The notes beneath the pieces were generated by a model, which did no database searches, was not told where the DNA came from, and saw nothing but the letters and a program-made list of their open reading frames with translations. From an uncultured Pseudomonadales bacterium (GTDB lineage Bacteria > Patescibacteriota > Microgenomatia > UBA1400 > PJMF01), in assembly GCA_964583795.1 (NCBI GenBank), contig CAZOWX010000002.1, positions 14,966 through 78,965 of the forward strand: a stretch of DNA of 64,000 nucleotides, read 5' to 3'. Below are positions 6,392 through 64,000 of the stretch, one piece after another; positions within the stretch are counted from its first letter, which is position 1; every line of letters begins with the position of its first letter. Made by a program: the position numbers and the translations under genes.

Positions 6392-6446
6392 AATGGAATT
6401 ATAATACACAAAAGCCTTGAAGCGAAATACCCCTCTTTAAAAAAGC

Positions 6447-7664
6447 ATGACCCCTACACAAATTCACCATATATTGCCATTTTTGAAAGGACTGAAGTCC
6501 GATCGTGTATTTATTAAATCATTTATTTTTTTTGTGTTGCTCAACACGGGAATTTATCTCAATATAGTAACCTTCCATTCAATTATTCCTCATGGAGATT
6601 CTACAGCTCAAATGCATCACTTTTTACTTGACTACAGAGCTACGCACACACCATTTAGCCTACTACGATCACTTAATCAAACAGATGCCCAATGGTACAT
6701 AGGCATTGCTACTCATGGATATCCAACTCCCCCTAATAATATTTACGACTTCACAGACACAAGCAAATTTAGCAGTTTGGCATTCGCTTTTTTTCCAGTT
6801 TTCCCGCTTCTGATCGCTCTCGTTAACTTAGCGGTACATAACATAGAGCTCTCTGCTTTTATCTTGAATAGTCTCTTTTTGATTGCTGGTTTTGTGAGTC
6901 TTTATGGATTGATTCGAACATTTGGATACAGCGCAATAATCAGCGCAAAAACCTGTCTGTTTTTCTTCTTTTATCCTTTTTCATTTTATTTTCGAAGTTA
7001 CTTTACTGAACCGCTCTTCTTATTACTGCTCATTTGGTTCTACTATTTTTTTACTCAAAAAAAATATATCTTCGCAGCCGTTTTGCTATCGGTGCTAACC
7101 GTAACGAGAGGATCAATCATACTTTTTTTACCGTTTTTCTGGTTACTCACTTTTCAGGACACTGAAAATCTCATGAAGTCACTGGCAATTGTCACGGTTA
7201 CAGTATTACCACTGGGAGCGTGGTCAATCTTTAACTTTGCTCAAACGGGTGATCCACTGTACTTTTTACATATCAGAGATTTGTGGATTCCCTCAGATAT
7301 TCCTTTTCGAAGTTCGATTATTTTTAATATCGCGGTTATCGCAAGTTTTTTTGACTTTCCCATCTTGTTCAGTACATTTAATAAAACGGATATTTTACTC
7401 ATCTTTGCATATGGGTTCCTACTATTAAAGTCCAGAGAAGTAGCTTCAAAAAAAATCTGGATCTCTAATATTTTTCTTTGGCTCTCACCACTCATTTTTG
7501 CCAGTACGATGTCTTTTAACCGTTATTTGTCAGTCATCTTCCAACCATATCTTTATATCGTCAAAAAATTTCCAGACTGGCTATTGAGTCTTACTTTTGT
7601 TTTACAATATATCATTCTCAATATTTTTGTTTTGTTCTTTATTAATGGACATTGGATTGGATAA
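6447..7664 (+). CDS. Polytopic membrane protein, possible GT-C fold glycosyltransferase (ArnT/PMT-like)
   Basis: 405 aa, about 10 predicted TM helices, F/L/I/Y rich, AT-rich gene; family assignment tentative. Confidence 0.35.
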   Translation: MTPTQIHHILPFLKGLKSDRVFIKSFIFFVLLNTGIYLNIVTFHSIIPHGDSTAQMHHFLLDYRATHTPFSLLRSLNQTDAQWYIGIATHGYPTPPNNIYDFTDTSKFSSLAFAFFPVFPLLIALVNLAVHNIELSAFILNSLFLIAGFVSLYGLIRTFGYSAIISAKTCLFFFFYPFSFYFRSYFTEPLFLLLLIWFYYFFTQKKYIFAAVLLSVLTVTRGSIILFLPFFWLLTFQDTENLMKSLAIVTVTVLPLGAWSIFNFAQTGDPLYFLHIRDLWIPSDIPFRSSIIFNIAVIASFFDFPILFSTFNKTDILLIFAYGFLLLKSREVASKKIWISNIFLWLSPLIFASTMSFNRYLSVIFQPYLYIVKKFPDWLLSLTFVLQYIILNIFVLFFINGHWIG

Positions 7665-9265
7665 TTATGAATTATTTTCAAAAATTAGCGCTAATAATCC
7701 TCAATCACATCCATGAGAGCTTTTCTCAAATGTGGTTTGACTTCTCAAAAACCAGGATTTTTTGTTTCGGAATTGATTTCTTACCCGTTTGGATTTTACT
7801 CTTCAATCTTATTTTTCACTTGCTCATTACCATTAACATTGCCAGTCTCAACTATGATGAGTTTATTTTACTTTCCATTAGCAAACAACCCACGCACGAG
7901 TTCTTTAACACCATACAAGCTGAGCCACATCCTCTAGGATTCTACTTATTATTGCGATTGTTTCAACTCACTCACTTCAGCACATCACAAATAAGAATTA
8001 TCCTTACTGCGTTTTTTCACAGCGTGTTACTGTTTACAACAATTTTCGCCTACAAATCAAAACTCATTGAAAAATTCAATGCAAAGCTTGGTCTTTCCTT
8101 AGTTTTTACTTCGTTTGTCATCTTTCAGGTTGGTATACAAGTTAAACAAGACGTCGTTTCATTTCCTCTCTTTTTCGTGTTTTTTGTCTCCTCATTTTGT
8201 TTGGCTTTTCTGAAAACAAGACATCCACAGGTACTCAAAAGTGTCTCTTTTTTCTCAGTTACTTTGCTTTTATTTTTTAGTTATATCTACTTATTATTCT
8301 CAAGCATTACCATACTATTGTTCCTAGTTTTTGCAATGAAAAAAAAGGCCGCTAATGGAACGTTTTTTTTCTGTACACTCATTGTTTTAACAATAAGTTC
8401 ATTGTTCTATTTTTATGCTTACGGTCATTATCAGATTGAAAATAATTACTTGCAAAAAAATCGATTTTTGTGGACACAAACAGTTCCTAATAGTTTTATA
8501 GCAGGAATTCCTGGTTCAATCGCAGGAGCGCAACTTGACGGCCCTATCGGAGATGCTTTTACGATCATCTTTATTGTCTTGTTTTTTACTGCAATCAAGC
8601 AAAATCGGAAATCATCAGAAACTGCACACAGATGGGTTTTGGCAGCCTTTCTCATTTTTCTCTTGACGACCTCGTTTTCACGATTGTTTGTTCAGGACCG
8701 ATACAGTGTCCCAGTATTTATGGTGTTTATGTTTATTTGTGGATCAGTGGTCGGGATTAAGTTACGTCAATCATTGATCTGGATACTTCTTTTCGTGCTT
8801 TACATTCGTTCGGCAACTGTTATTTTATCAGCTTCAGATAACACTCGTTCGTTTGAAACACTTGCACGTGTTTTATCAGAAGTATCTCAAAATCAAAAAA
8901 CAGGGTTACTGTCTAACTTGCCCGGCGGAGGTTTATATCTCAAAGTTCGATTTGCACCAAAACTACCGCAGATTATTCCACTTAGCACTTCAAAAAACTC
9001 GGCACTCATCCCAAAACCAATATTTAATCATCAATATTTAAGCGAGTCAGCTGAAAGCATAGAAAAAACCAGTTCTGACCTCCAGGCTGACTTTCGATCG
9101 CTTCAATTTTCTCAGTTTGTGCTAGTTGACTCATACAGCAGTGCCTACAGCTTTTATGACCCTGAACACCGAACTAAATCTGCTCTCGCTAGTATGTGTA
9201 CTAAAAACGATGAACTCGTCCAGTTTAATTCAGTTGACGTAGTTTTGTTTTCTGATTGTCAATAA
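7652..9265 (+). CDS. Polytopic membrane protein, possible GT-C glycosyltransferase with C-terminal soluble domain
   Basis: 537 aa; multiple TM helices in N-terminal two thirds; overlaps upstream gene by 13 nt (likely operon). Confidence 0.35.
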   Translation: MDWIIMNYFQKLALIILNHIHESFSQMWFDFSKTRIFCFGIDFLPVWILLFNLIFHLLITINIASLNYDEFILLSISKQPTHEFFNTIQAEPHPLGFYLLLRLFQLTHFSTSQIRIILTAFFHSVLLFTTIFAYKSKLIEKFNAKLGLSLVFTSFVIFQVGIQVKQDVVSFPLFFVFFVSSFCLAFLKTRHPQVLKSVSFFSVTLLLFFSYIYLLFSSITILLFLVFAMKKKAANGTFFFCTLIVLTISSLFYFYAYGHYQIENNYLQKNRFLWTQTVPNSFIAGIPGSIAGAQLDGPIGDAFTIIFIVLFFTAIKQNRKSSETAHRWVLAAFLIFLLTTSFSRLFVQDRYSVPVFMVFMFICGSVVGIKLRQSLIWILLFVLYIRSATVILSASDNTRSFETLARVLSEVSQNQKTGLLSNLPGGGLYLKVRFAPKLPQIIPLSTSKNSALIPKPIFNHQYLSESAESIEKTSSDLQADFRSLQFSQFVLVDSYSSAYSFYDPEHRTKSALASMCTKNDELVQFNSVDVVLFSDCQ

Positions 9266-9443: not shown

Positions 9444-9845
9444 TTATTCAAACGCCTTTGGTATAGCAAAGTTGCCTTTAAATGGATCGTCCACACCCAA
9501 GAAAGAGATCACCAACAAGAAGATTGCATACGAGGCAGCAACCACAGCTAAACCAATTACTGCAGCAGTGATTTTATTTCTTGCCTCTTCAGTCTTGCCT
9601 TTATCGCCGCCTGAAGTAATCCATTGAATTCCACCCCAAACCAAGTAAGCAAATACGAGCAAAGCAGCGACAAACATCACCATATTGAGTAAACCGGTAA
9701 TCAATTTTCCAAAATCCTGAATCTTAAAACCACCTTTACTTAAATCAATTGAAATTGACTCAACTTGTGCAAAAGCTGTAGTAACAGCAGTCAAACTGCT
9801 AGCAGCCACCGAAGTCAGGGCGATTACTTTTTTGGGCAAATTCAT
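9444..9845 (-). CDS. VirB2/TrbC-like pilin family protein (paralog 2)
   Basis: Signal peptide; LVWGGIQWITSGGDKGKTEEARNKITAAVIGLAVV motif shared by all paralogs. Confidence 0.55.
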   Translation of the reverse strand: MNLPKKVIALTSVAASSLTAVTTAFAQVESISIDLSKGGFKIQDFGKLITGLLNMVMFVAALLVFAYLVWGGIQWITSGGDKGKTEEARNKITAAVIGLAVVAASYAIFLLVISFLGVDDPFKGNFAIPKAFE

Positions 9846-9952
9846 ATATACCTTTCATTCACCATGTTTATGGATAAACGATTATTGTAAATATCTGAGC
9901 TTCTCTAGCTTATATTTTACCCTGTACGACTTCAAGAGTCAAATTGAACAAA

Positions 9953-10330
9953 CTATTCTTCAGGGATACAAAGAGCGCCCCTACAGTTAGGTGGTGCAAC
10001 ACGAGTCGCAGGCGCATTCACAACATTAATCCCCAAAAAAGTCTGAAGTATCATGAAAATAGCCCCGACGCTTGCCAAAACAGCTAAGCCAATCATGGCG
10101 TGGGTAATTTTCTTACGAGCTGACTCCACCTTTCCAGTGTCACCTTGAGACATGATCCAATCAACTGCGCCCCATAGCATGTAAAAGAACGCCAAAATAG
10201 CAGCAAAAACCAGCAGACCTCGCATGAATCCCTCGACCGTCGGTCCAAATTGATTTAATGGCGAAATCTCTCCCACTCTACTTTCAATGTTAATCGTCGC
10301 TGGCGATTGTAAGAGCATTTGAAAAAACAT
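9953..10330 (-). CDS. VirB2/TrbC-like pilin family protein (paralog 3)
   Basis: MLWGAVDWIMSQGDTGKVESARKKITHAMIGLAVLASV; same family motif. Confidence 0.55.
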   Translation of the reverse strand: MFFQMLLQSPATINIESRVGEISPLNQFGPTVEGFMRGLLVFAAILAFFYMLWGAVDWIMSQGDTGKVESARKKITHAMIGLAVLASVGAIFMILQTFLGINVVNAPATRVAPPNCRGALCIPEE

Positions 10331-10345
10331 AAAAGACTCTCTTTG

Positions 10346-10702
10346 TTAACAGGTGATACCTGGTCCTGGGATACAAATATTGAGTAAATTCAGCCCAAAC
10401 AACGAACCAACTAGCTGAACAATTGCCACGGAAGCGGCAAGAATCGCCAATCCCACCACAGCTCCAGTCATTTTCTTGCGTGCCGAAGAAACTTTCCCCT
10501 CTTCCCCGCCGGCCATAATCCAATCAAGAGCCCCCCAAAGTAAAAACAAAAGGGCGACCAAATTTCCTACCATGATCAATGCTCGCCATAGCAAAACAAT
10601 ATAGTTTGTCAAAGCAGCTGTTCCATCTCCGGCTCTACCTCCGTACCCAGGCGTCAAAACCGGATTATGAATTTGAGTAAGTAGTGTCAATAAAGGTAAC
10701 AT
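10346..10702 (-). CDS. VirB2/TrbC-like pilin family protein (paralog 4)
   Basis: LWGALDWIMAGGEEGKVSSARKKMTGAVVGLAIL; start set at ATG 10702 (MLPLLTLL), 3 nt after the upstream gene's stop. Confidence 0.5.
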   Translation of the reverse strand: MLPLLTLLTQIHNPVLTPGYGGRAGDGTAALTNYIVLLWRALIMVGNLVALLFLLWGALDWIMAGGEEGKVSSARKKMTGAVVGLAILAASVAIVQLVGSLFGLNLLNICIPGPGITC

Positions 10703-10704
10703 CG

Positions 10705-11130
10705 TTACTCCACAATAACAGGGGCCCCACCCACACCAGGACATCCTGACACAGGGTTTAATATACTTAACATATTGCCAGGATTAAGAATATCCAAACC
10801 GACAACTGTTCCCACGACAGCAATTACGCCATAGGCCACAATGACAATGATTAAACCGATTGCTCCATTCGTCATTTGCTTCTTCGCGCTATCAACCTTT
10901 CCACTATCGCCACCAGCCAACGCCCACTGCAACCCACCAAACACAAAGTAAAGCAAGAACGCTAGTCCCGCAATCACTGTCAAAAATCCAATAATTAAGG
11001 AAATAATATCATTAAAGTTTGTCAATGCCTTGGTGCCACACTCACCAACAGTAGCATCGGTTTTAAAAAATCCAGAGCCGGGCACTTTAAACCCATCTCC
11101 AAACTGTGCTATTAAGTTAAGTATCATCAT
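10705..11130 (-). CDS. VirB2/TrbC-like pilin family protein (paralog 5)
   Basis: FGGLQWALAGGDSGKVDSAKKQMTNGAIGLIIVIV. Confidence 0.55.
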   Translation of the reverse strand: MMILNLIAQFGDGFKVPGSGFFKTDATVGECGTKALTNFNDIISLIIGFLTVIAGLAFLLYFVFGGLQWALAGGDSGKVDSAKKQMTNGAIGLIIVIVAYGVIAVVGTVVGLDILNPGNMLSILNPVSGCPGVGGAPVIVE

Positions 11131-11142
11131 ACGATAATAGTG

Positions 11143-11514
11143 CTATACCCCAGTGAGTTTGGGGTTGAGTATGTAAGTCGCATCACCAAAGAAAATCAAA
11201 CCAATAATCGCTGCAATCGTAAAGGCACTCACAATAATTAGCAGCCCAATCAAGCTCATGTAAATACTTTGCCAGGCGGTTTCCACAGCCTTAACATCAT
11301 TTGAGGAAGTAATGTACTTAAAGCCAGCGAGTACCAAGTTAAAAAGTGCCCAAATGCCCGCAATGACAGTAATCAGCTTAATCATATTTGAAGCAAAAAT
11401 AATGATCCCAATTTCACCCGGCGCTACTAAACCTTGATACTTTGCAACTCCCGGAGGAGGACTAATTTTCCCCCAAGGAGATGCTTGCGCTAGTAGTGTC
11501 GAAAACAAAGTCAT
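11143..11514 (-). CDS. VirB2/TrbC-like pilin family protein (paralog 6, divergent)
   Basis: Two-TM architecture with ...KYITSSNDVKAVETAWQSIYMSLIGLLIIV. Confidence 0.45.
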   Translation of the reverse strand: MTLFSTLLAQASPWGKISPPPGVAKYQGLVAPGEIGIIIFASNMIKLITVIAGIWALFNLVLAGFKYITSSNDVKAVETAWQSIYMSLIGLLIIVSAFTIAAIIGLIFFGDATYILNPKLTGV

Positions 11515-11527
11515 ACGCTGATTCGAT

Positions 11528-11860
11528 TTACCCGATAATTGTTACCCCTGTAATAAATTCCACTATCTGTATAATCCAGTATGCACTAAACATTACCAAA
11601 AAACCAATGATCGCTGAGGTGATTTTCTTTTTTCCTTCTTCCACCCCTTTTGATGAATCTGATGCAATTATACTCAATCCACCCAAAATCAACAAGAAAA
11701 GCAAAAAAATTCCTGCAAACACAAATAAGTTGGTAACCACCAAATTGACCAAGTCAGACAAGCTTTTGTATTTTTCTCCAACTGTTTTACAGTTACCGGC
11801 AGCATCACATCCCAAGACAATTGACTTTTCCAGATCAATTTGAGCGAGTAAGTGTAACAT
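11528..11860 (-). CDS. VirB2/TrbC-like pilin family protein (paralog 7)
   Basis: GGLSIIASDSSKGVEEGKKKITSAIIGFLVMF. Confidence 0.5.
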   Translation of the reverse strand: MLHLLAQIDLEKSIVLGCDAAGNCKTVGEKYKSLSDLVNLVVTNLFVFAGIFLLFLLILGGLSIIASDSSKGVEEGKKKITSAIIGFLVMFSAYWIIQIVEFITGVTIIG

Positions 11861-53459: not shown

Positions 53460-54560
53460 CTAACTGCTCAACTTAAAGGGAACGGCAATATATGTTACTT
53501 GAGGAATCTTTTTACAGCTGAGACGAACGGGCTTGAGCGGATCGTTGCAATAAATTTGGCACTCTTCACCAGCAATTCGTTGTAAAAATTCCAAAAGGTA
53601 TCTCCCATTAAACGCGATCTTCAAACTTTCTTGGGTGTTTGATTTCGCGCTCAGGGAACTCGTGTATTCCCCTAAAAGAGAGGAGTGTGCACTCACACTC
53701 ATTTGGTCGGGAAAAACTTCAATTTGCACAATACTAGAGCCTTCGGCGCTAAAGATCATGGCTGATCGGATGTGGTGTTGCAGTTCATCGGCATCGACTG
53801 AAACTTCAATTGCGAACTCTTTGGGGATCACCGCTTTATAATTGGGAAACTCTCCTTCAAGAGTCCTCAACACAATCTGGGCACTCGGGAGAGAAAAAAA
53901 GACTTGTTTAGCACCTTGAGAAAAAGAAAGCATCACCGTATCCACTTTTTGAGACACAACAACTTTCTCAATTTCATTGATTGCTTTGGCTGGAAATAAG
54001 ATCTGCTTTGGCTCTTTGACTGAAAGCGCAGGTTCCAGGAGAGACATGCAGTACCCATCGGTAGCAACAATGTGTGACTGCTCAGACAAAGCAAACAAAA
54101 CTGCTGTCAAAATGGGTCGGTTTTCGTCTTTGCTTGATGTAAAGGTAACATAGTTCACCGCATCACTCAAAATAGACGCGGGCAAAGTCAGCGTCTCTCC
54201 CTCAACTTGTGGAAATGGAGGGAAGTCTTGTTCTGGGAACGTGTTTACCACGCTTTTGGTTTGATTCGAAGTAACTGACAGTGAAAGCCCACTCAAAACA
54301 AGACTCACTGATCCTGTCAGACTGGAAACAAGCTCACTAAAAACTTTAGCAGGAATAACACAAGAGCCTTCTTCGGCAACGGATCCGGCAATTTTTTGTC
54401 TCATACCAATGTTCAGATCAGTGGCAGTGAGCCAAATTTCTGAGTTTCTGGCTTCTAACAAGATACATGACAGAATTGGTAGCTGCGGCTTGGTGGAAAG
54501 AAAACGAGAAACAGTTTTAATTCCAGTGAGGAGGTTGGTTTGTAAAACATCGATTTTCAT
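53460..54560 (-). CDS. dnaN: DNA polymerase III beta subunit (sliding clamp)
   Basis: MKIDVLQTNLLTGIKTVSRFLS... three-domain clamp; track ORF extends upstream into oriC (54743), ATG at 54560 preferred. Confidence 0.8.
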   Translation of the reverse strand: MKIDVLQTNLLTGIKTVSRFLSTKPQLPILSCILLEARNSEIWLTATDLNIGMRQKIAGSVAEEGSCVIPAKVFSELVSSLTGSVSLVLSGLSLSVTSNQTKSVVNTFPEQDFPPFPQVEGETLTLPASILSDAVNYVTFTSSKDENRPILTAVLFALSEQSHIVATDGYCMSLLEPALSVKEPKQILFPAKAINEIEKVVVSQKVDTVMLSFSQGAKQVFFSLPSAQIVLRTLEGEFPNYKAVIPKEFAIEVSVDADELQHHIRSAMIFSAEGSSIVQIEVFPDQMSVSAHSSLLGEYTSSLSAKSNTQESLKIAFNGRYLLEFLQRIAGEECQIYCNDPLKPVRLSCKKIPQVTYIAVPFKLSS

Positions 54561-55146
54561 AGTTGCAGCACTTTTGAAAAAACTTTGTGTAAACGGTCTG
54601 TTCGTAGTATAGAGAACAAAAGATTTTTTACAAAAGTATTTTTTAGTGAATCTTACACAAACAGTACTAAATAAATATAAACTAGTAGTAGGTAATAGTA
54701 GAACTGTGGAGAAAACGAACAACTGCGTGAAGCTGCTCAACAAGTTCGGGAAAAGTTTTTGTGTAAAACCTGAGGAAATGTGTGGAAAACCTCAGTGCAT
54801 AAAAGGTGTGAAACCCGTCCTTTGTGTGAAACCAGAATGAAGTAAACCACATTCCCCCAATGCCAATGCACCAATTCACACCGCTTATCAACAGGGTTTT
54901 CCCCAAAGTTTTGCACAATAGTGGAAAACTAGCTTATAAAACTCAATAAACATTGGTTTATCAATGTAAAGTTAACTCTATGTCGTAAGTTTGCGAATAG
55001 TTGCAGACGATGAAAATTGTTTTGGTCGGTGTTTGGTGCACTGACAAGAATTTGTGAAGACTCTTTTTGTTGAAAATCAACTGAGGGGAGAGATTGTGAT
55101 GCAGGGAAACAAAGTCCTCTGAGGGATTTGAAAATTGTTTTTTCAC
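54561..55146. other. Putative oriC (dnaA-dnaN intergenic region)
   Basis: At least 6 DnaA-box-like 9-mers (tgtggaaaa, tgtgtaaaa, gtgtgaaac, tgtgtgaaa, ttatcaaca, agtggaaaa) plus AT-rich tract 54600-54690. Confidence 0.6.
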
Positions 55147-56664
55147 TTATTCCTCGGACTGGAGCGTGGAAAGAGAAGTGGGCGTACCACCAGACAAAGA
55201 AGTTCGTATGGCCTGGACTTGCGTTCTCAGCTCTTCGTCTTGTGGCAACGCCTCTTCGATTTTTTTCACAGCATGCATCACGCTGGTGTGGTCTCGATCC
55301 CCAAAATAGCGACCAATCTCTGCAAAGGGAATCTCGAGGTGGTGCTTGATGAGATACATGGCGATGTGTCGAGCGTTGGCGATGGGTTTGGCCCGTTTTG
55401 GACCACGAAGATCCATTAGTTTTATATGGTACTGGTTGGAGATGGTTTTGATGATTTCTAGCGGTTTTGCATAAATTTTTTCTTTTTTCTGATCGCTCAC
55501 TTGATGCTGACTAAGAATTTCTTGGACAAGATCGTGGGTAATCATTTTGTGACGAAGAATGTGTTCTGAGTGGAGTGCTTTGACGATACCCTCGAGCTTT
55601 CTGGTGCTGGTGATTGCTGCTGCAATTCTTTGAGCGATGTCCATGGGAATGGTGAACTGAATTTGTTTGGCTTTAATCAAAACAATGGCGGTTCGCAGCT
55701 CAAAAGACGGCTGTTGAATATCAATGATAAGGCCGCCTTCGAGTCTCGACTGAATTCTGTCATCCAGCGGGCTAATTTCATGTGGCGGCCGATCAGAAGT
55801 CAAGATAACTTGACCCCGCGATTTTAGCACTGAGTTAAAGGTGTGAAAAAATTCTTCTTGCATGGCTCGTTTTCCAGCCATGAACTGAATGTCATCAATC
55901 AACAAAATTTGGACGCTGCGATAGCGCTGTTTGAGCTGAATGGTTTTTTTTGTCTGAATCGCCTCGACGATCTCATTCATAAACTCTTCGCCAGTGCGGT
56001 AAATGAGATTGAAGTTTTGGTTGTTCCGAAGGATGTTTTGACCGACGGCTTGCATAAGATGCGTTTTTCCAACACCCACTCCGCCGTAGAGAAACAAGAC
56101 GTTGTAGGCTTTTCCTGGATTTTGGGAGACTGCAACCGCCGCTGCATGGGCCATCTCGTTGGTTGATGAGACGGCAAACGTGTCAAATATGTAGTTTTTG
56201 TTGAGGCCAGCTTGTTGAATTTTGTAATCAACGAGGTCGTCTGCTGATTGTTGAATGCTGGCTTGAGAAAACAGCGATGCAGCAGAAGGCGAAATTGGTG
56301 TTTGAGATGGCTCATTGGTTTGCTTTGGAATATCAAAACCGATGGATTGTTGTTCTTCGTTGTGAGGCGTCCTTTTGCGCTGTTTTCCTGTGGGAAGTGT
56401 GAAATCCCCCACTTGAAGCTTGAGTTCAACCGGTTTTTCTAAAATTGTTTCCAGTGTTTGTGCAATGGTTTGTTTAAAACTTTTTTCAATAATGGAGATG
56501 TGAAAAGAGGTTGGGGATTCAAGCGTGCACACAATTTTATCTGGTTGCTCTTGGACGTCTGAAAGAACGTTGGGGAAAATCCAAGTTTTAAAAACCCCTT
56601 GTGACAGAGCTACTGAAAGTTCTGCACAGACTTTTCCCCATAATTCTTCTGGTGAGTAGGTCAT
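55147..56664 (-). CDS. dnaA: Chromosomal replication initiator protein DnaA
   Basis: Walker A GGVGVGKTHL, IDDIQF, sensor motifs, C-terminal DNA-binding domain. Confidence 0.95.
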   Translation of the reverse strand: MTYSPEELWGKVCAELSVALSQGVFKTWIFPNVLSDVQEQPDKIVCTLESPTSFHISIIEKSFKQTIAQTLETILEKPVELKLQVGDFTLPTGKQRKRTPHNEEQQSIGFDIPKQTNEPSQTPISPSAASLFSQASIQQSADDLVDYKIQQAGLNKNYIFDTFAVSSTNEMAHAAAVAVSQNPGKAYNVLFLYGGVGVGKTHLMQAVGQNILRNNQNFNLIYRTGEEFMNEIVEAIQTKKTIQLKQRYRSVQILLIDDIQFMAGKRAMQEEFFHTFNSVLKSRGQVILTSDRPPHEISPLDDRIQSRLEGGLIIDIQQPSFELRTAIVLIKAKQIQFTIPMDIAQRIAAAITSTRKLEGIVKALHSEHILRHKMITHDLVQEILSQHQVSDQKKEKIYAKPLEIIKTISNQYHIKLMDLRGPKRAKPIANARHIAMYLIKHHLEIPFAEIGRYFGDRDHTSVMHAVKKIEEALPQDEELRTQVQAIRTSLSGGTPTSLSTLQSEE

Positions 56665-56774
56665 AACTTTTTTGATGTTTTTCTTGAGGAAACTCGAAGA
56701 AAAAGCAGATGAGGGCAGTCAGTTTTCCACAATATACACATAGTTTTACACAATTGGCAAGAGGGGGTTTAGTA

Positions 56775-56830
56775 GTTAACAGTGAAACAGTGAAACAGTG
56801 AAATAGTGAAACAGTTAATAGTGAATAGTT
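56775..56830 (-). promoter_or_regulatory. Conserved upstream motif (copy 5, expanded by a CAGTGAAA x4 tandem) about 110 bp upstream of dnaA
   Basis: Reverse complement ctattcactattaactgtttcactatttcactgtttcactgtttcactg. Confidence 0.45.
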
Positions 56831-56860
56831 TTGGTGACTTGTTCCGATGGAGTGTCTGAG

Positions 56861-56917
56861 TTGGTTGGTTGGTTGGTTGGTTGGTTGGTTGGTTGGTTGG
56901 TTGGTTGGTTGGTTGGT
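56861..56917. repeat. (TTGG)14 microsatellite
   Basis: Seen directly; ORF 56588..56935 (TNQPTNQP...) is its translation and is not credited. Confidence 0.9.
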
Positions 56918-57045
56918 CCGAAAGGAAAAGTACAACTCAAAGCTTTTTAGCTAGCTCATGATTATTGAAAAAAATGAAAATGTAGAAATGACAGCATACT
57001 TGCTGTTGTTTGAAACGAGAATCTTGTGCCTAATAGTTCTGATGA

Positions 57046-58929
57046 CTAATAGTTTGTCTGCTTATCAGCTAACACCTTCGCTTGGGCGGCTTGTTGTTCG
57101 CTGAGTTTTTGTTGGGCAAGAAGCTCTTCTGGGTTGGTGGTGATGAGCTGGTGTTCTATGTCTGAAGCTAAAACGCGAAGTGCGACATGATTTTGTCCGG
57201 CAAAAAAGATGCCCTCGCCAACGTCTGACGCTAGTAACAATCGCTGTTCACCCTCAGAAAGATAAAAGGTTTGGGTTAACACTGGCAAGGCGGCGCTGGA
57301 CTGTTTCATCAAAAACTGAATTGATGAGTTGGTCACAATCGCTTTTCCGTATTCGTTGCCCAAAAAGTCTTCAACGTCTTGAGTAATAGTGGTGATACCT
57401 AAAAAGTACTTTCTGGCGCGCTTGGCCATTCCGTGCAGAAACGAAGCACTGTCGGCATATTTCATGAAGTACCACGCTTCATCGACAATTAAAATTCTCT
57501 TTTTGAGTTTTTTCTTCACTCGAGTCCAGATAAAATCCAGGATCATGAACATGGCAATGGGGCGCAACTCTTCATGTAAATCTTTGACTGAAAAGACGGT
57601 GAAAGGATTGTGAATGTCCAGGTTCGATTTTTGATCAAAAATGCCTCGAAAAGAGCCTTTGATGAACTTTTCCAGACGTGCTGAAAGGTTGAGTGCATCC
57701 TGGGTTTCCATTCCGATTAATGCCTTGTAGAGGTCTTCCATTAATGGTGGTTCGTTGGCTTGTGTGGCGGGATCAGGGGTGATACCTTTTGATTTGTATG
57801 CAGCGACGAGCGCCTGATCTAAAATGGCATCTTCTGTCGGAGTCATTTCTCCGAGCATAACTCGAAGCAATGTGTGCAAAGAAATAATTTTTTGTCCCAA
57901 CTCATTTTCGCCTTCTTCATAGACGTTTGAGAGGTCAAATGGGTTAATTTTCGTTTTGGCGCCAAAAGTGAAGTTAATATACTCGCCACCAACAGACTGG
58001 CACATCTCTTCATACTCATGTTCAGGATCGAGTATCAAAATGTCTGCACCAAAAATGAGCATACGCATTGCCTCAAGTTTGATGGCATACGATTTTCCTG
58101 CACCGGACTTGGCAAATACGACCATGTTGGCGTTTTCCAGACTAAACCGGTCAAAAATAACCAAAGAGCCATTGTGCTCGTTAATGCCGTACACAATGCC
58201 GGTGTCTTGAGTGAGCTCTGAAGAAGTGAACGGAAATGTTGTGGCCAGAGAAGTGGTGTCCATATTTCTGGTAACGAGCAGTCGGTCAACACCCATGGGG
58301 AGTGTTGTTTTAAACCCGTCTTCCATCTGTAAAGAGGCTTTTTTTGAAACAATGAGTAAACTACCCAAGAGCGATTGGAGTTGTTTGGTAACTCTTTCTA
58401 GCGATGCTTTATCAACGTCCATCAGTGTTACATACAGTCCAAACTGGTAAAAGCGCTCAGAGCCCTTTGCGAGCTGTTCTTGGAGAGTCCTGGCGTCCTC
58501 GAGCTTGACCTCGGTGTTGATGTTGCTGATTTTGCCAGAGCGAATATCGGATTGAATTTCTGCTTCCATTTCTGTGATTTTGCGGCGCAAGTTGTCCAAA
58601 ATTTTGTCAATCTCTTGGGGGAAAATGTACATACCGATATCAAGTCTGTGCGGGAAGTTGATCAGTGGTGACAGCCAGTTTGCGGGGACGGTGCGAGGAT
58701 ATCCTGCGATGAAAAATGTCCGAGTGTAGGTGGAGTTGATTTTTTGATAAGTAAAATCAACCTCAATCGCTTCCGGAGCAATAATATCCTGAATACTTAC
58801 GAGTCCTTGAGCAAATTGCTTGAGCACCTTTTGGTTTTCTTGGTCTTGTTGGCGTTTTTGTTGATCAGCATCAGAACCTTGCGGCTTTTTCAGAAAGGGA
58901 AGTGGAAGATTGAGTGAAAATTTTGCCAT
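57046..58929 (-). CDS. Type IV secretion system ATPase, VirB4/TrbE/PrgJ family
   Basis: Walker A VVFAKSGAGKSYAI, Walker B RILIVDEAWYF, conserved VirB4 C-terminal domain. Confidence 0.8.
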   Translation of the reverse strand: MAKFSLNLPLPFLKKPQGSDADQQKRQQDQENQKVLKQFAQGLVSIQDIIAPEAIEVDFTYQKINSTYTRTFFIAGYPRTVPANWLSPLINFPHRLDIGMYIFPQEIDKILDNLRRKITEMEAEIQSDIRSGKISNINTEVKLEDARTLQEQLAKGSERFYQFGLYVTLMDVDKASLERVTKQLQSLLGSLLIVSKKASLQMEDGFKTTLPMGVDRLLVTRNMDTTSLATTFPFTSSELTQDTGIVYGINEHNGSLVIFDRFSLENANMVVFAKSGAGKSYAIKLEAMRMLIFGADILILDPEHEYEEMCQSVGGEYINFTFGAKTKINPFDLSNVYEEGENELGQKIISLHTLLRVMLGEMTPTEDAILDQALVAAYKSKGITPDPATQANEPPLMEDLYKALIGMETQDALNLSARLEKFIKGSFRGIFDQKSNLDIHNPFTVFSVKDLHEELRPIAMFMILDFIWTRVKKKLKKRILIVDEAWYFMKYADSASFLHGMAKRARKYFLGITTITQDVEDFLGNEYGKAIVTNSSIQFLMKQSSAALPVLTQTFYLSEGEQRLLLASDVGEGIFFAGQNHVALRVLASDIEHQLITTNPEELLAQQKLSEQQAAQAKVLADKQTNY

Positions 58930-59120
58930 GTAAATATCGACGTTTTACTTATTCAGACACACAATGAGTGTTGTCACTGTTTGTGTTTTGTCTTAACAAT
59001 GCTTTCTTCAACTAAATTTTTCTTCTGATACACTTTGTCATTTGACTAAAACCCACGATCGTAAGAATTACGACCCCGAACTACTTTTACAGTTTTTAGC
59101 AGCCACAAACGCTCCTCGAA

Positions 59121-60422
59121 CTAGTTTTGTGTCGGAGGAGTTGGCATAGCCGACGAAAAGGGGGGCTGCTGAGTACTTACTCCAGGAAAAACCGGCTGAG
59201 GAATGGCTGCTTGTGGCTGCGTGTTGCCCGCGTTGCTCATTGGTGACGCTTGACTGAGCGTCTGATTAATCATGCTTTGAACTTCCGCTGCTGGTGGGGT
59301 TAGTGGAGTTGGCTCTGTGGGCAGCTCTGGTGGCGTGGCCACCGCAGGAGACTCGCTGATAGGGCTGTCAACTGGATTTGCCACTGGAGCGCTCGTCATT
59401 GCTGGTTGTGGTATTGGTTCTACTGGTGCTGTTCCGGCCATTTGAGCAGGTGTAGAAAATCCAAGCGGTGTCTGGTTAAATTCAGGCATCTTTGGCTCTT
59501 CTGCGACACTCATGACTGGAATTATTGGTGTTGTGGCTGTTGGAATTGGCTCTGGTTGAGCCGAAACTGGCGGCATTGTTGGTGCAGGCATCACTGTCTG
59601 TGCTGGAGTGAAGCTTTGGATGGGAGGTTGAGTCATTCCCGTTGGTGCCGTAGTCATGCTTGGGACACTAGGTTCTGTTGCGGGTGGTGCCATGTTTGGC
59701 ACGGGTGTGGTGGTATCCATCATAAAGTCTCCTTGTATTTTTGCCTGGACAAGAGGCGTTGTGTAATGCGATGTGTCCGTGACCTTTAATCCTTCAAATG
59801 ATTCAGGGTTGTATGAAGAGTATAGCATTTGAATCAGCTCTTGAGTGGTTAGTTGCCGAGAGTACAGGCCAATGCGAGCGAGTTGATCGATGAGGTGGTC
59901 TTTGCGTGGTATTAAGTTCGTTTTTGCTTTTTCAATGATGTAGTTTTTTTCAAAACTCGAGAGCGGTTTGTTTTTGGCTCCGGGGACAACGCTTTGAGTG
60001 GTGAGGCCCATCTCAACGGCTGACAGAGGAATCACGATATAAAATTTCTTATCAAGGACGTTTTGATCTTGGACCAGAGCTTGGACAAACTCACGGTACT
60101 CTTTTATTTTTTGTCGATACGTTGGGTTGGTTGTTGTATCTTCCATGTCTTGAATTGTTTTAATGTAGGCAGTCACATCTTTTGGTTGTGAGCGAATGAC
60201 GATCTGAATGGGAAACGAAAGTGAGTTGAGCAGCGCCGCATACGCATAAATAGTAGCGTCTTGTTCGCCTTCTGACAGCAGTCCAAAGTTCATGGCACTA
60301 ACGCTAATGACCAAGGATGTTGCTCCGTCGCCCAAGATAATTAGGTCATTGGTAATGTCATACAGGTCCAAAAACAACTGGGTAGTGGACTGACTAATAT
60401 CGTGAATCTGCTTTTTTGCCAT
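59121..60422 (-). CDS. Hypothetical T4SS-associated protein with about 150-aa P/T/A/M-rich C-terminal tail
   Basis: Sits between the PrgI-like gene and VirB4; N-terminal about 280-aa globular region; tail low-complexity. Confidence 0.3.
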   Translation of the reverse strand: MAKKQIHDISQSTTQLFLDLYDITNDLIILGDGATSLVISVSAMNFGLLSEGEQDATIYAYAALLNSLSFPIQIVIRSQPKDVTAYIKTIQDMEDTTTNPTYRQKIKEYREFVQALVQDQNVLDKKFYIVIPLSAVEMGLTTQSVVPGAKNKPLSSFEKNYIIEKAKTNLIPRKDHLIDQLARIGLYSRQLTTQELIQMLYSSYNPESFEGLKVTDTSHYTTPLVQAKIQGDFMMDTTTPVPNMAPPATEPSVPSMTTAPTGMTQPPIQSFTPAQTVMPAPTMPPVSAQPEPIPTATTPIIPVMSVAEEPKMPEFNQTPLGFSTPAQMAGTAPVEPIPQPAMTSAPVANPVDSPISESPAVATPPELPTEPTPLTPPAAEVQSMINQTLSQASPMSNAGNTQPQAAIPQPVFPGVSTQQPPFSSAMPTPPTQN

Positions 60423-60455
60423 TGTTGTTCTTTACATACTCATGTCAAAACAAAG

Positions 60456-61553
60456 TTATACCAAACCAGGGTCACTATTGGTATCAGTAGCGCGGATTTC
60501 AATAGGATCGATAATGGTATTGTCGAGTACTAACTTTTGCGTTGGGAATAGTATACCGCCCTTCTCTGCCTTCATGAAATATTCTCCGTTTTTGAGTGGC
60601 GTACTGATAAAAAATTGACCAATTTTATTTGTCTTGACTGCACGAACCGGCATTCCTTGATCATCTTCAATTTCCACAATTGCGTTCTCGACAATATTGC
60701 CATACTGATCAAAGACCATTCCGACAACCAAGTTTGGTTTGTTTGGTTTCTGAGGGAACGGTAAGTCTTGGGAAGTTGTCACTACCTTGATATTCAAGTC
60801 TGTGGTGGGAGAGGGTGTTTGTGAAGGAGCTATTGGGGCGTTGAACACGTCGACTATCTGGTTTGTTTTTTCTTCAACAACCTGTTCAATTGGCTCTGGA
60901 GCAACTTGAATAATGGGAGGGATCACTTCTGGAATCTGGTCAGCTCGGAGGCGTTCTTCTTGCACCGGTGTATTGGGGGTCGTAAAGAGATCTTCATATT
61001 GTTTCAGAGAGTGAGGCGTTGAGGTGAGGTTTGGTTTCGAAAAACTTTCAACGGCTTCTACATGGGTAACTTGCACCGCATCAAAAAGAGTCATGATCGA
61101 GCTCACCTGTTGTTGTTCCAGCAAATCAAGCGGATTGAGCTGTGTCTCGGAAGGAAGTGTGTGGATGTACTCATAGATTCTTTGTTGTCGAAGTGGTGAG
61201 AGGTCAACTTCTTGTTGAAAAGCAGAGACGTCTTTTGCGGTGTGGGTGAAGTATCCAGGTAAATCACCTGATTTTTGCCAAAAGAATTGAGTTGGTTTGT
61301 AAATCGCCCGGAATAAGGCGATAAACCACTGATCAAGAGGTCGTCCTTCGTACGGTACAAAAGCGATCATGGCGCCAAGTCCGACAAAAAATACGATCAT
61401 TGGCCATTTAATAATGTCAGGAAGGTTGGTTTGGTGGAGCACCACACCGATAAGAATGCCGCCTGCCAGTTCTAGGAACTGTTTGAGCGTCATGTTCCCA
61501 ATCAAATGGAACTCATACGAGGTGACGGCTTGTGGTATTGGGTGATCTTGCAT
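60456..61553 (-). CDS. PrgI-like (VirB3-analogue) two-TM protein fused to C-terminal beta-sandwich domain
   Basis: N-terminus SYEFHLIGNMTLKQFLELAGGILIGVV plus second TM, typical of PrgI-family proteins that precede VirB4 in Gram-positive-type T4SS; C-terminal carboxypeptidase-regulatory-like fold (GMVFDQYGNIVENAIVEIED). Confidence 0.45.
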   Translation of the reverse strand: MQDHPIPQAVTSYEFHLIGNMTLKQFLELAGGILIGVVLHQTNLPDIIKWPMIVFFVGLGAMIAFVPYEGRPLDQWFIALFRAIYKPTQFFWQKSGDLPGYFTHTAKDVSAFQQEVDLSPLRQQRIYEYIHTLPSETQLNPLDLLEQQQVSSIMTLFDAVQVTHVEAVESFSKPNLTSTPHSLKQYEDLFTTPNTPVQEERLRADQIPEVIPPIIQVAPEPIEQVVEEKTNQIVDVFNAPIAPSQTPSPTTDLNIKVVTTSQDLPFPQKPNKPNLVVGMVFDQYGNIVENAIVEIEDDQGMPVRAVKTNKIGQFFISTPLKNGEYFMKAEKGGILFPTQKLVLDNTIIDPIEIRATDTNSDPGLV

Positions 61554-61832
61554 TTTTTAGGTTCTAGGTTATAGGTGCTAGGTTCTAGTTATTGTTGTGT
61601 TGTATTGAGTTTATCCAATTACTCCAAGTGGCTTTGGAATTTGATTGGGTGTTTTTGTTGTTCGTTATTTGTTGGCTTGCCTCGCCGTAGCGTTTCGCGA
61701 AGGCGGGGAGTTAAGATGTTCTTCTTACTTTATCAAGAAAAGGAGTTTTGACCAAGTGACGAAGTATGTCTTAAGAGAAAAAAGTGTCAGTAAATAATGA
61801 CGACTGAAGACTGATTTCTGACAACTTGTTGG

Positions 61833-62822
61833 TCATTCTACTTTGACAGCGGGAGAGATGGCTTCGACGTCAAAACTTTCACTTCCTGCAAAGCCAATTC
61901 CTACAAAACGTATGTATGGGACTATATATCCGTTTTGTTCGTTTTTTCGGTACTCAAGTAAGGCTTTATCAAAAGTAACTTCTCTGAGCGTGTCGGTATA
62001 GCTTTCAAAATCTTCTCTACTGCTTACATTAATAAAAGTAACATTTTTAAATGTGACTTGTTGTTCTATCTGATCAAGGCTGAGGGTGTTATGCGTTTCC
62101 ACTTTTTCAAATGTTTTTCCGATAGGATAAAAACTGGCTTTTTTAATATTTCCCTCTAAATCAGTCCAAAACTCTGCTGGTGGCTCTGCTGTGTCTCCAG
62201 AAATAAGGGGAAAACCATCAAGAAGAACGCTGACTTTAAACAACATTGCATTTGCAGCTTCTTTATTGGGGGCCGCAACAATGTGATTATCCATAAGCAT
62301 GTATTGGGGGTCAGATATAACTGTGTTTTCTGTCATACCTAATTTGATCAGTAAATCTTGAATATTTTCCAAAGCAAGGTCCTTTCTTTCTGTTATACCT
62401 GTCTTTGGTATCAAACCATCCTTATTATAAAAAGCAATCGAAATATCATTATTCGAACTTTTTTCTAATAAAATAGTGGCTTCTTCATTCCTCCAATAGG
62501 GAAGTGTGCTTTTTTTTACCAGTTGTAGATTTTTGACAAATTGTTGAACCAAGTCATCAGCTTTTGAGCTTTTATCTTCAAGATTTCTGTATACAGTGAT
62601 TTTTTTTGGGATTTCTATAGAGATTTGGTTGAAAACTATTTTTGGTGAGTATTTTTGAGTGTTTGTGACAATTGTTTCTATTGGAACTGGTGGTGGAGTG
62701 AGTGCTTGCAAAACAGCAGAGACAACAAGCAGCAGCGCAACGATACTCAAAAAAATTCGAGTTGATTTTTTCTTAAACAGGTTTGCTAAAAAATCTTTTA
62801 TATTATCGGCCATAATATTCAT
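61833..62822 (-). CDS. Bitopic extracellular protein (hypothetical, T4SS-associated by position)
   Basis: N-terminal TM IFLSIVALLLVVSAVL then about 290-aa ectodomain; overlaps M23 gene by 20 nt. Confidence 0.3.
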   Translation of the reverse strand: MNIMADNIKDFLANLFKKKSTRIFLSIVALLLVVSAVLQALTPPPVPIETIVTNTQKYSPKIVFNQISIEIPKKITVYRNLEDKSSKADDLVQQFVKNLQLVKKSTLPYWRNEEATILLEKSSNNDISIAFYNKDGLIPKTGITERKDLALENIQDLLIKLGMTENTVISDPQYMLMDNHIVAAPNKEAANAMLFKVSVLLDGFPLISGDTAEPPAEFWTDLEGNIKKASFYPIGKTFEKVETHNTLSLDQIEQQVTFKNVTFINVSSREDFESYTDTLREVTFDKALLEYRKNEQNGYIVPYIRFVGIGFAGSESFDVEAISPAVKVE

Positions 62823-63771
62823 TACAGACTATACCAATATCTTTTGTGTTTTGGGAGTATTCTCCGTTGAGTGAACTATAAAGGGCATACTCATTGAGGC
62901 CTGTAACTTCATAGTGTAAATGAACAAACCAATCTTTTACGCCCCCAGAACCCCCAACTAGGCCAATTTCCTCACCACCCTCTACTGTGTCCCCAACTTG
63001 TTTTGTACTGGCTGCGGCCATGTGTAGGTACATTGTTTGGTACGTTCCGTGATCTATTTTGACGTAATAACCGTACTTTTCCTCTTCATTTTGAGATGAA
63101 TGCACGACTGTTCCGGGTGCGGCGGCATAGATGGGGACCTCACCACCCAATCCAGGAGGGTTTGTTCCAATATCATACGCGTCGGGCTTATAGTTGGGGC
63201 CAAGTCCTCCACAGTGTGTCCCGATTATTGGCCTTCCGTTATCATCTGGAATGCATTTTAAGGGAGTAGGGTTACTTTTCGGTCCAGTAAACGGTGGTAG
63301 TTGTGAAATATGTCCGTCAATTGGCCAGCAGTCTGCCACCTGAGTTTTTGGACAGTCTCCAAAACAGGTTTGAGCTCTGGCGTTAGCCTCTTCAGCCGAG
63401 TCGTTTGCCGTAAATGACACCTTTATATCATTTTTAACTAAGGAGTTATTAAAACGAGAGTCTGAGGCATCAATGTCAAACTCCAGAGATATTGCAGCCT
63501 CTTTTTCTACTGTTTTCCCCTTCAAAGTTATTAGCTGATCGAGGACTGATTGTGGAATATCAGGCGGAACAACGGTATTTAAGTCTTTATCAATGGTTGA
63601 CATAGCTTCTGTAACATCTGTTATGATGATTGTCTCAGGAACATCTGGTTTTTTTGTAATCTCGATTCTGTAATGAATTTTCTGAGGCTCTTGAGCATTG
63701 GTTGGGCTTGGTATTTTTTTAACAGTGATATATCGAGATTCTTCAATATCTGTTGAATAGTACGGCGCCAC
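62803..63771 (-). CDS. M23-family (LytM) peptidoglycan endopeptidase
   Basis: HGTYQTMYLHM ... WFVHLHYEV motifs; the frame stays open upstream to the window end (hydrophobic TM-like stretch 63780-63900), so the true N-terminus may lie beyond 63771. Confidence 0.7.
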   Translation of the reverse strand: MAPYYSTDIEESRYITVKKIPSPTNAQEPQKIHYRIEITKKPDVPETIIITDVTEAMSTIDKDLNTVVPPDIPQSVLDQLITLKGKTVEKEAAISLEFDIDASDSRFNNSLVKNDIKVSFTANDSAEEANARAQTCFGDCPKTQVADCWPIDGHISQLPPFTGPKSNPTPLKCIPDDNGRPIIGTHCGGLGPNYKPDAYDIGTNPPGLGGEVPIYAAAPGTVVHSSQNEEEKYGYYVKIDHGTYQTMYLHMAAASTKQVGDTVEGGEEIGLVGGSGGVKDWFVHLHYEVTGLNEYALYSSLNGEYSQNTKDIGIVCNEYYGR

Positions 63772-64000
63772 TTGCGTGGTGCTGGCGTCGGGGAGAAAGG
63801 CTGAGAAAATGGCTGTGGTGGTCAGTAAAGAAAGTGTGGTGACGGCGACGAGTGGAGTGGCGACGGCGACGGTGGTGGTGGTATTTACGGCGATCGGGAC
63901 TCCAGAGGTGGTGATCGTACCAAGTGTCTTACTTAAGGCTGCTTTGGCTGGTGCAGCGGCTGATTGAGTTAAGCCGTCAAGAGCTCCTTTTGCGGCCTTG

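Follow-up and report, generated by a model that had tools for sequence, protein, structure and literature searches.

Gene content of the locus

The stretch of DNA analysed here, 64,000 nt of contig CAZOWX010000002.1 (in the following: the window), carries at its right end (57046..64000) a module of five minus-strand genes that an initial annotation had interpreted as part of a type IV secretion system (T4SS) of the Gram-positive type. All five open reading frames (ORFs) that this annotation had outlined are present where it had placed them, and they form a single co-oriented cluster running directly into dnaA and then dnaN on the same strand. In the direction of transcription, the module and the two replication genes read as follows:

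62803..64000 (listed ORF 62803..63771), minus strand: 3' part (last ~399 codons) of a gene for a large membrane-anchored protein with a C-terminal M23 domain (PF01551)
61833..62822, minus strand: bitopic protein, 329 aa, with one N-terminal transmembrane (TM) helix; no named family
60456..61553, minus strand: PrgI/VirB3-like protein with a beta-sandwich (PF12666, PF13620)
59121..60422, minus strand: TrsD-like protein with a P/T-rich tail (NF045975 in its N-terminal part; PF26593 precomputed)
57046..58929, minus strand: VirB4-family ATPase, 627 aa (NF045971 and P-loop_TraG)
55147..56664, minus strand: dnaA (Bac_DnaA, E 9.5e-62, with DnaA_N and DnaA_C domains)
53460..54560, minus strand: dnaN (three DNA_pol3_beta domains)

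The listed dnaN ORF is over-extended, since its DNA_pol3_beta domains start only at ORF residue 62; translation probably begins at the ATG at 54560. The GC content of the module (0.41-0.46) equals that of the remaining window. Two intergenic gaps inside the operon are unusually long, one of 191 nt before virB4 (58930-59120) and one of 279 nt before the PrgI gene (61554-61832), the latter with a (TAGGTTC)4.4 repeat. Neither gap has an Rfam match or a significant promoter or terminator signal, and an Rfam scan of the entire 53-64 kb interval returned no RNA family.

A VirB4 ATPase that looks split over two genes

The assignment of the ATPase to the VirB4 family in the initial annotation was borne out by a score of 367.5 bits against NF045971 (VirB4-like conjugal transfer ATPase, CD1110 family; E 1.3e-109), which lies above the curated cutoff of 325, and by a match of 94.9 bits to the Pfam family P-loop_TraG (cutoff 25.8; E 5.6e-27). 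Its Walker A (AKSGAGKS, residue 273) and Walker B (ILIVDE, residue 479) motifs are both intact. The Mbov_0397 family, typical of integrated conjugative elements (ICEs), was matched as well. Other ATPase families, CedB and HerA/DUF87 among them, score far below the VirB4 families: archaeal CedB attains 37.7 bits against a cutoff of 700 (E 9.7e-10), and the match to CedD is also weak. More than 8,000 VirB4 homologues were retrieved, the top 120 of which are 72-100% identical to the protein from the window. The best homologues reach 72-93% identity. Those with a taxon name are for the most part labelled Patescibacteria group, with a few other labels, and the closest named ones stem from metagenome-assembled genomes labelled Patescibacteria group, Pacebacteria, Paceibacterota, Microgenomates or Woesebacteria. 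Judged by the identity and the labels of its homologues rather than by a formal tree, the window VirB4 thus appears to group with the VirB4 proteins of the Patescibacteria.

The ATPase covers positions 172-733 of the 752 positions of the NF045971 profile; as the match starts only at position 172, the usual N-terminal ~170 residues are missing from the polypeptide. Against NF045975 (VirB4_plasma, the VirB4 of mycoplasma ICEs), it covers positions 278-893 of 894. The neighbouring protein encoded at 59121..60422 matches the same profile at positions 98-281 with its residues 8-210 (E 8.5e-9). The two proteins hence tile a single VirB4 profile end to end, so that VirB4 looks split over two genes. 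We accordingly regard the product of 59121..60422 as a TrsD-like homologue of the VirB4 N-terminal domain; a gene identical to it carries the precomputed Pfam annotation PF26593 (TraC-like), and a PDB sequence search with the protein gave no match. The P/T-rich tail previously attributed to it is real: residues 226-433 constitute a low-complexity stretch of 208 aa, 64% of which are P, T, A, S or Q. The suggestion that the protein might belong to the VirB8/TcpC families did not survive the profile search, in which the VirB4 N-terminal domain was matched instead. The length of the TrsD-like protein varies (398 aa at locus L002, the closest relative, whose VirB4 is 92% identical, and 279 aa at locus L003, with a VirB4 77% identical), and its N-terminal domain is 47-88% identical across 78 loci.

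The membrane and envelope proteins of the module

The product of 60456..61553 had been described as a PrgI-like protein with two TM segments fused to a beta-sandwich domain, and this description holds. The PrgI domain (PF12666) scores 30.1 bits against a cutoff of 27, the TM segments occupy residues 21-39 and 47-65, and the resulting hairpin is followed by a long linker and a C-terminal beta-sandwich of the CarboxypepD_reg type (PF13620). The latter falls below the cutoff as a single-sequence match (E 1.1e-4). Among 42 orthologues, however, the PrgI domain is present in all and the sandwich in 41 (best E 3.8e-9), and the fusion is therefore a fixed feature of the clade.

The bitopic protein, recognised as such by the initial annotation, has a single N-terminal TM helix (residues 23-41) and no Pfam or NCBIfam family match. 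Word-indexed searches for its relatives, including one with a profile built from 31 positional orthologues, yielded three matches only, and its family became visible by exhaustive hidden Markov model (HMM) search, in which 657 cluster representatives passed a threshold of E<=1e-3 and 426 one of E<=1e-10. Among the 150 family matches listed, nearly all are full-length (304-384 aa), with five shorter fragments. Thirty positional orthologues align over their full length and share conserved TP, EYR, PYYRF and ITPAV motifs. We regard the bitopic protein as a representative of an unnamed, fast-evolving family that appears to be specific to this operon. An AlphaFold2 (AF2) model computed from a 144-sequence alignment (predicted local distance difference test, pLDDT, 93.5; predicted template-modelling score, pTM, 0.87) predicts an ectodomain built from three alpha/beta subdomains behind the TM helix. 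Foldseek searches with this model retrieved no PDB or BFVD structure at E<1e-3 and no VirB8, TcpC or PrgL protein; with neither a profile family nor a structural match to back it, the proposed kinship of the bitopic protein with these families is unsupported.

A shallow AF2 model of the bitopic protein, based on four sequences (pLDDT 72.8), had matched the YycI structure 2o3o_F with an E value of 6.9e-5 and a probability of 1.0. As this match is absent with the deep-alignment model, we rejected the YycI-like assignment as unreproducible. The case serves as a caution of method: a model built from a shallow alignment can yield a strong-looking Foldseek match that a better model loses.

The M23 domain of the first gene is well defined (PF01551, E 1.6e-16), and its H..D and HLH metal-binding motifs are present. 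The initial annotation had considered that this ORF might reach the edge of the window; indeed, its reading frame contains no stop up to base 63999, and the gene therefore continues past the window for about 2.5 kb more. The visible 399 codons, with one hydrophobic helix at their residues 50-68, align to residues 855-1231 of the 1,231-aa orthologue at L002 with 44% identity. The positional orthologue at L003 comprises 1,156 aa, and relatives span 1,050-1,600 aa. In the relatives, the full protein consists of ~750 N-terminal residues without TM segments, a Gly/Ala-rich block of three to five hydrophobic helices, a linker and the M23 domain. No Pfam family covers the N-terminal ~750 residues in these relatives, and the N-terminal 763 aa of the L002 protein found no match in a PDB sequence search. 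The M23 protein is predicted to serve as a dedicated peptidoglycan hydrolase of the LytM type, a VirB1 analogue, and its block of three to five TM helices could fill the role of VirB6.

Conservation of the locus and evolutionary rates of its components

A scan of species-representative genomes yielded 80 loci, and the neighbours of virB4 were counted by tblastn with the window proteins over 83 loci. Genes for the TrsD-like protein (78 of 83 loci), DnaA (76), PrgI (74), DnaN (70) and YidC (65) were found near virB4. The prevalent order, on one strand, is large M23 protein, bitopic protein, PrgI, TrsD, VirB4, dnaA, dnaN and, further along, yidC; its recurrence in about 70 of the 80 species-representative genomes means that the arrangement is no chance juxtaposition. 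In the window dnaA follows 381 bp past virB4, and in the relatives the corresponding alignment gap has a median of ~480 bp. Where dnaA lies nearby (76 loci), it is situated directly downstream of virB4 and on the same strand in 70. At L003 virB4 is shifted ahead of the other four genes, with the cluster still located beside dnaA and dnaN. A DUF4012 protein of 1,154 aa is encoded at 46226-49690 on the minus strand, a few genes downstream of dnaN and yidC; as homologues occur in the same neighbourhood in 60 related loci, it forms part of a conserved origin-proximal block.

Since the window ends within the operon, we used L002 as a proxy for the sequence past position 64000; an exact look-up of the bitopic protein gave no match, and that of VirB4 led to a Logan contig of just 3.9 kb. 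The 3 kb (five genes) upstream of the L002 operon encode a toxin-antitoxin pair of the ribbon-helix-helix (RHH)/YafQ type, a carbohydrate kinase, a RecF-like protein and SpoIID, and contain no relaxase, coupling protein, VirB6, integrase or other T4SS gene. The RHH antitoxin and YafQ/ParE-like toxin genes (2309-2805 of L002) are placed directly upstream of the large M23 gene, a position that corresponds to that just past the window edge. Within the window, the ORFs of at least 277 aa that were scanned gave no match to type IV coupling protein (T4CP), relaxase or VirB6 families and no P-loop protein besides VirB4 and DnaA; relaxase families were likewise absent from the window and from the flanks of L002 and L003. 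The earlier statement that no relaxase, VirD4 or VirB6 is visible in the window consequently stands, while the accompanying idea that these genes may lie just beyond position 64000 finds no support in the upstream genes of L002. Two observations had been named beforehand as damaging to a T4SS assignment: an upstream region devoid of further T4SS genes, which is what L002 displays, and a better fit of the ATPase to an FtsK/HerA-type family, which is not found, VirB4 being the best match. Two features, the fixed place on the chromosome and the lack of relaxase and T4CP genes in the vicinity, speak against conjugation and for a resident, non-conjugative apparatus. The view that the apparatus is a chromosomal resident beside dnaA and the replication origin (oriC) agrees both with its synteny with dnaA, dnaN and yidC in 65-76 of the 83 loci and with the literature discussed below.

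The components of the system evolve at different rates. Between the window and L002, VirB4 is 92% and DnaA 86% identical, and the N-terminal domain of the TrsD-like protein 88%; identity amounts to 68% for PrgI, 64% for the whole TrsD-like protein, 44% for the visible part of the M23 protein and 35% for the bitopic protein. The cytoplasmic motor is conserved to the same degree as DnaA, while the predicted surface-exposed parts and the pilin paralogues diverge fast.

The origin region and the orientation of the operon

The two spacers that flank dnaA both carry repeats:

54561..55146, no strand: dnaA-dnaN spacer with the DnaA-box-like repeats TTTTCCACA, GTTTCACAC and TTCTCCACA
56665..57045, no strand: virB4-dnaA spacer with a microsatellite, TGTTTCAC repeats, one DnaA-box-like site and a promoter-like site upstream of dnaA

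In the dnaA-dnaN spacer, DnaA boxes with one mismatch are located at 54705, 54781 and 54885, and box-like nonamers together with the related GTTTCACAC repeats span 54705-54895; this spacer is likely to be oriC or one part thereof. Upstream of dnaA, 8-bp tandem repeats of the TGTTTCAC type occupy 56778-56829, and a perfect (CCAA)14.5 microsatellite (GTTG on the plus strand) is found at 56860-56917, just upstream of the promoter-like site. No comparable microsatellite is present in the virB4-dnaA spacer of 70 related genomes, and the element could be slippage-prone or merely strain-specific. The presence of repeats on both sides of dnaA suggests a bipartite oriC flanking this gene. Scans for promoters and terminators gave no excess over shuffled controls. 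Consensus DnaA boxes are marginally enriched across the window (25 versus 16.4 expected, a number reached in 3 of 100 shuffles); because this enrichment is only marginal, the placement of oriC rests on the local box-like repeats and on the switch in GC skew, the sign of which changes at ~54 kb in the region of the dnaA-dnaN spacer.

The same switch can be followed in the relatives. At the 53 loci with enough flanking sequence, the GC skew of the coding strand is negative on the T4SS side in all 53 and positive beyond dnaA in 41, with gene orientation being constant. The simplest reading of this compositional pattern is a switch of the replication strand at dnaA. The T4SS operon would then be situated on the other replichore and be transcribed towards the origin, head-on to the replication fork.

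Pilin genes and further genes of the window

Seven genes for VirB2-like pilins are located in the left part of the window:

9444..11860, minus strand: six divergent VirB2-like pilin genes (PF18895, E 3.1e-8 and 1e-4 for the two genes scanned)
5942..6409, minus strand: seventh VirB2-like pilin gene (PF18895, E 1.2e-8)

All members of the six-gene array share a pilin-like pattern, and the paralogues are 18-46% identical to each other. The distance of about 45 kb between the array and the core ATPase that had initially been noted was measured as 45.2 kb from virB4. BLAST searches with the pilins and pilin-adjacent proteins of the window failed to locate copies of them less than 10 kb from virB4 in the relatives, a search of low sensitivity for proteins as divergent as these.

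The seventh pilin gene overlaps the start of the gene that follows it (2392..5970, minus strand), which encodes a secreted protein of 1,192 aa with a hydrophobic segment at its N-terminus. The protein has no Pfam or NCBIfam match and may be a pilus-associated surface protein or an adhesin. An SLT-like domain at its C-terminus, guessed from the sequence, is unsupported, as this part of the protein found no match in a PDB sequence search. Two overlapping genes for polytopic membrane proteins of 405 and 537 aa (6447-9265, plus strand) lie between the pilin genes. The first of these (6447..7664) weakly matches an NCBIfam family for cell-surface glycopolymer formation (E 8.8e-5), and the pair (6447..9265) otherwise has no Pfam or NCBIfam match and no match to a VirB6 profile; the two proteins resemble glycosyltransferase-type membrane enzymes more than VirB6. 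Elsewhere in the window, a near-complete mevalonate cluster (14793-22081, plus strand) encodes an HMG-CoA reductase, an HMG-CoA synthase-like protein, a thiolase, two GHMP kinases and a diphosphomevalonate decarboxylase-like protein, and a Fic/DOC-domain protein with a C-terminal DeoR-like helix-turn-helix is encoded at 1078-2187 (minus strand). The window is part of a chromosome of the Patescibacteria (candidate phyla radiation, CPR), as the labels of the closest named VirB4 homologues show; the DUF4012 protein, the mevalonate genes and the PF18895 pilins belong to the same picture.

Interpretation of the module and alternative explanations

With a probability of roughly 0.9, we interpret the region as the cytoplasmic-membrane and energising core of a Patescibacteria-clade T4SS, that is, as a chromosomally fixed and vertically inherited derivative of the conjugation machinery of monoderm bacteria (MPF_FATA) which is no longer tied to the transfer of DNA. 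The Gram-positive-type (MPF_FATA-like) character already perceived in the initial annotation is backed both by the profile matches and by the literature (PMC12102498, PMC10633639). Quinonero-Coronel et al. (2025, Microb Genom; PMC12102498) placed 2,425 VirB4 proteins in a Patescibacteria clade nested in MPF_FATA. In their survey, no accessory component is more abundant than TrsD, which is associated with virB4. Homologues of PrgI/VirB3 are widely distributed, hydrolases with an M23 domain are present, as are VirB2 arrays comprising 2-11 genes, and VirB6 and VirB8 are scarce; the absence of relaxase and T4CP genes near virB4 is the norm for the lineage (PMC12102498). A passage of that paper citing Guglielmini 2014 describes TrsD as a stand-alone homologue of the VirB4 N-terminal region. 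The authors also reported virB4 near dnaA, dnaN, rnpA and rpmH, a location which they read as a gene-dosage effect (PMC12102498). In Southlakia epibionticum, transposon sequencing (Tn-seq) revealed that PrgI (SEML1_0010), a 293-aa hypothetical protein (0009) and a VirB4-like K12063 protein (0008) are all essential for growth on the host; its T4SS was remarked upon by the authors for an unusual subunit composition, a series of pilins and the lack of a coupling protein or relaxase (Wang 2023, Cell; PMC10633639). Both studies are summarised in a 2025 FEMS review (PMC12857230).

A working model for such an apparatus can be sketched along these lines. PrgI would anchor the VirB4 hexamer at the membrane, and the TrsD-like protein would supply in trans the N-terminal domain that ordinarily brings VirB4 into contact with VirB3 and the membrane. 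The M23 domain, as VirB1 analogue, would open the cell wall locally, and the bitopic ectoprotein together with the TM block of the large protein might form a wall-spanning scaffold or channel that replaces unrecognisable VirB8 and VirB6 proteins. The machine so formed would assemble VirB2-like pili from the distant seven-gene array and/or transport cargo, be it protein or something else, between epibiont and host cell.

Several points weigh against this interpretation. Neither a VirB6-like channel nor a VirB8-like or coupling protein was recognised in the 64-kb window, and translocation would be ascribed to the apparatus by analogy. The roles proposed for the bitopic and the large protein are read from gene position, and the bitopic model resembles no solved T4SS component. 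In its match to NF041427 (TrsD/TraD family), the TrsD-like protein attains 20.8 bits (E 2.8e-4) where the curated cutoff is 200. The essentiality data were obtained in Saccharimonadia, another class with a partly different gene order (PMC10633639). VirD4-like genes are distant from virB4 in many genomes (PMC12102498). The window covers 64 kb of the genome, and T4CP or relaxase genes may be located elsewhere.

One alternative holds that the module is part of an ICE, or of a decaying conjugative plasmid beside dnaA, that transfers or once transferred DNA and whose relaxase and coupling protein genes lie outside the window. It can draw on the fact that the best family of the ATPase is a conjugal-transfer VirB4 (CD1110 family of CTn2), with a further match to the ICE-type Mbov_0397 family, that the genes upstream in the unfinished operon are unseen, and that the order PrgI-TrsD-VirB4 equals trsC-trsD-trsE of staphylococcal conjugative plasmids. 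The same operon is found, however, at the same place beside dnaA in ~70 species, a synteny that largely refutes this explanation. In the relatives compared, VirB4 identity drops together with DnaA identity, which argues for vertical descent and not for mobility. The upstream region of L002 offers housekeeping genes and a toxin-antitoxin pair where a relaxase, T4CP or integrase would be expected, the module does not deviate in GC content from its surroundings, and relaxases were detected in just 103 of 3,035 genomes (PMC12102498). We consider an origin from a conjugative element hardly credible. A machine for DNA uptake, Ced-like or ComB-like, that imports host DNA for nucleotides or for transformation is also very improbable in our view. 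The inability of Patescibacteria to make nucleotides (PMC10633639) would give such a machine a purpose, T4SS genes co-localise with comF, recG and radA in the class ABY1 (PMC12102498), and the ATPase does match archaeal CedB and CedD. Yet these matches are weak, that to CedB being far from its cutoff, and no competence genes are found near the module in the window or at the loci examined. Moreover, a passage of PMC12857230 that cites Wang 2023 attributes the competence of Southlakia to ComEC and type IV pili: deletion of comEC abolishes transformation and leaves the cells viable, whereas the T4SS is essential.

A third explanation, somewhat unlikely in our estimation, departs less from a Patescibacteria-clade T4SS, overlapping with it without excluding it. 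It sees in the genes no longer a secretion channel but only the assembly motor and wall-remodelling unit for VirB2-like host-adhesion filaments, or a division-linked wall process tied to the origin. The failure to recognise VirB6, VirB8 and T4CP genes, the presence of seven pilin paralogues, the status of VirB4 as the pilus-biogenesis ATPase of classical systems (PMC12102498) and the conservation of an M23 hydrolase and of the neighbourhood of dnaA, dnaN and yidC all speak in its favour. On the other hand, VirB6 and VirB8 may have become unrecognisable by divergence, the large protein does possess a block of three to five TM helices, and a link to cell division would be purely conjectural. Within the preferred reading of a Patescibacteria-clade T4SS, one may go further and combine the special features of the locus. 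VirB6 and VirB8 would then be replaced by two lineage-specific proteins, namely the 1,050-1,600 aa protein with its ~750-aa cytoplasmic domain of no known family, Gly/Ala-rich TM block and exposed M23 domain, and the bitopic protein with its three-subdomain ectodomain that has no solved relative. VirB4 would operate as a two-chain enzyme of TrsD-like N-domain and ATPase, and the operon, invariably reading head-on into oriC and dnaA, would couple the assembly of a host-contact machine to the initiation of replication and not just to gene dosage. This joint reading is speculative, and we rate it as improbable.

Significance and comparison with known systems

A large part of the bacterial diversity that has escaped cultivation consists of Patescibacteria, ultrasmall bacteria that live in attachment to other microbes. 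Before their origin-linked T4SS, no secretion system of the same superfamily had been shown to be essential for the bacterium carrying it (PMC10633639, PMC12857230). The window contributes one more well-preserved case, from a clade with relatives that bear the labels Pacebacteria, Microgenomates or Woesebacteria, and it leaves the current picture of the system unchanged. The invariant parts list that emerges (large hydrolase protein, bitopic ectoprotein, PrgI with beta-sandwich, TrsD-like protein and VirB4) could guide structural and genetic work.

Among the characterised conjugation systems of monoderm bacteria, the trs operon of the Staphylococcus plasmids pGO1 and pSK41 (MPF_FATA subclass) shares with the locus studied here the succession of a VirB3-like protein (TrsC/PrgI), TrsD and VirB4 (TrsE), a dedicated cell-wall hydrolase and a monoderm envelope. 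The trs system, however, is plasmid-borne and conjugative and operates with a relaxase and the coupling protein TrsK, neither of which has a counterpart here. Its hydrolase TrsG is of the SLT/CHAP type and not of the M23 type, it has no VirB2 pilins where the window encodes seven, and TrsE keeps its own N-terminal region, the ~170 residues that the ATPase described here lacks. Similarly, the Prg/Pcf T4SS of the Enterococcus faecalis plasmid pCF10 (PrgH, PrgI, PrgJ, PrgK, PrgL) comprises a protein of the PrgI family, an adjoining VirB4 ATPase and, from the same operon, the wall hydrolase PrgK. It differs in that its PrgH (VirB6), PrgL (VirB8-like) and PcfC (T4CP) have no detectable equivalents here, in that PrgK is an SLT/CHAP-type and not an M23-type hydrolase, and in that the PrgI protein of the window carries a ~270-residue extension ending in the beta-sandwich. 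Furthermore, the system of the window is chromosomal and linked to the origin.

The closest correspondence is with the Patescibacteria-clade T4SS itself, represented by the Southlakia cluster SEML1_0006-0019. In both, TrsD-like and PrgI-like genes adjoin virB4, and the order of PrgI, a protein of ~290-430 aa and VirB4 is that of SEML1_0010, 0009 and 0008. Also shared are a peptidoglycan peptidase, an array of divergent VirB2-like pilins, the absence of a nearby relaxase or T4CP and the position beside dnaA, dnaN, rpmH and rnpA. The pilin array is 45 kb away here and inside the cluster in Southlakia; the hydrolase is a large protein encoded upstream of PrgI here, whereas peptidase and lysozyme genes follow downstream of virB4 in Southlakia. 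No VirB6 was recognised in the window, in distinction to the Patescibacteria-clade T4SS, and the conserved bitopic ectoprotein between the large protein and PrgI was not found named in PMC12102498 or PMC10633639. The system, its gene content and its position at the side of dnaA are already known from publications of 2023-2025, and as it is described in PMC12102498, PMC10633639 and PMC12857230, the locus represents a correct recognition of a published system. Beyond these texts, our analysis makes incremental additions. A single VirB4 profile is tiled jointly by the ATPase and its TrsD-like neighbour, the bitopic proteins are delineated as a family whose confident model resembles no solved structure, and the fusion of PrgI with a beta-sandwich is a fixed one. 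More indirect are the steep gradient in evolutionary rate from the motor to the exposed parts and the uniform direction in which the operon reads into the origin.

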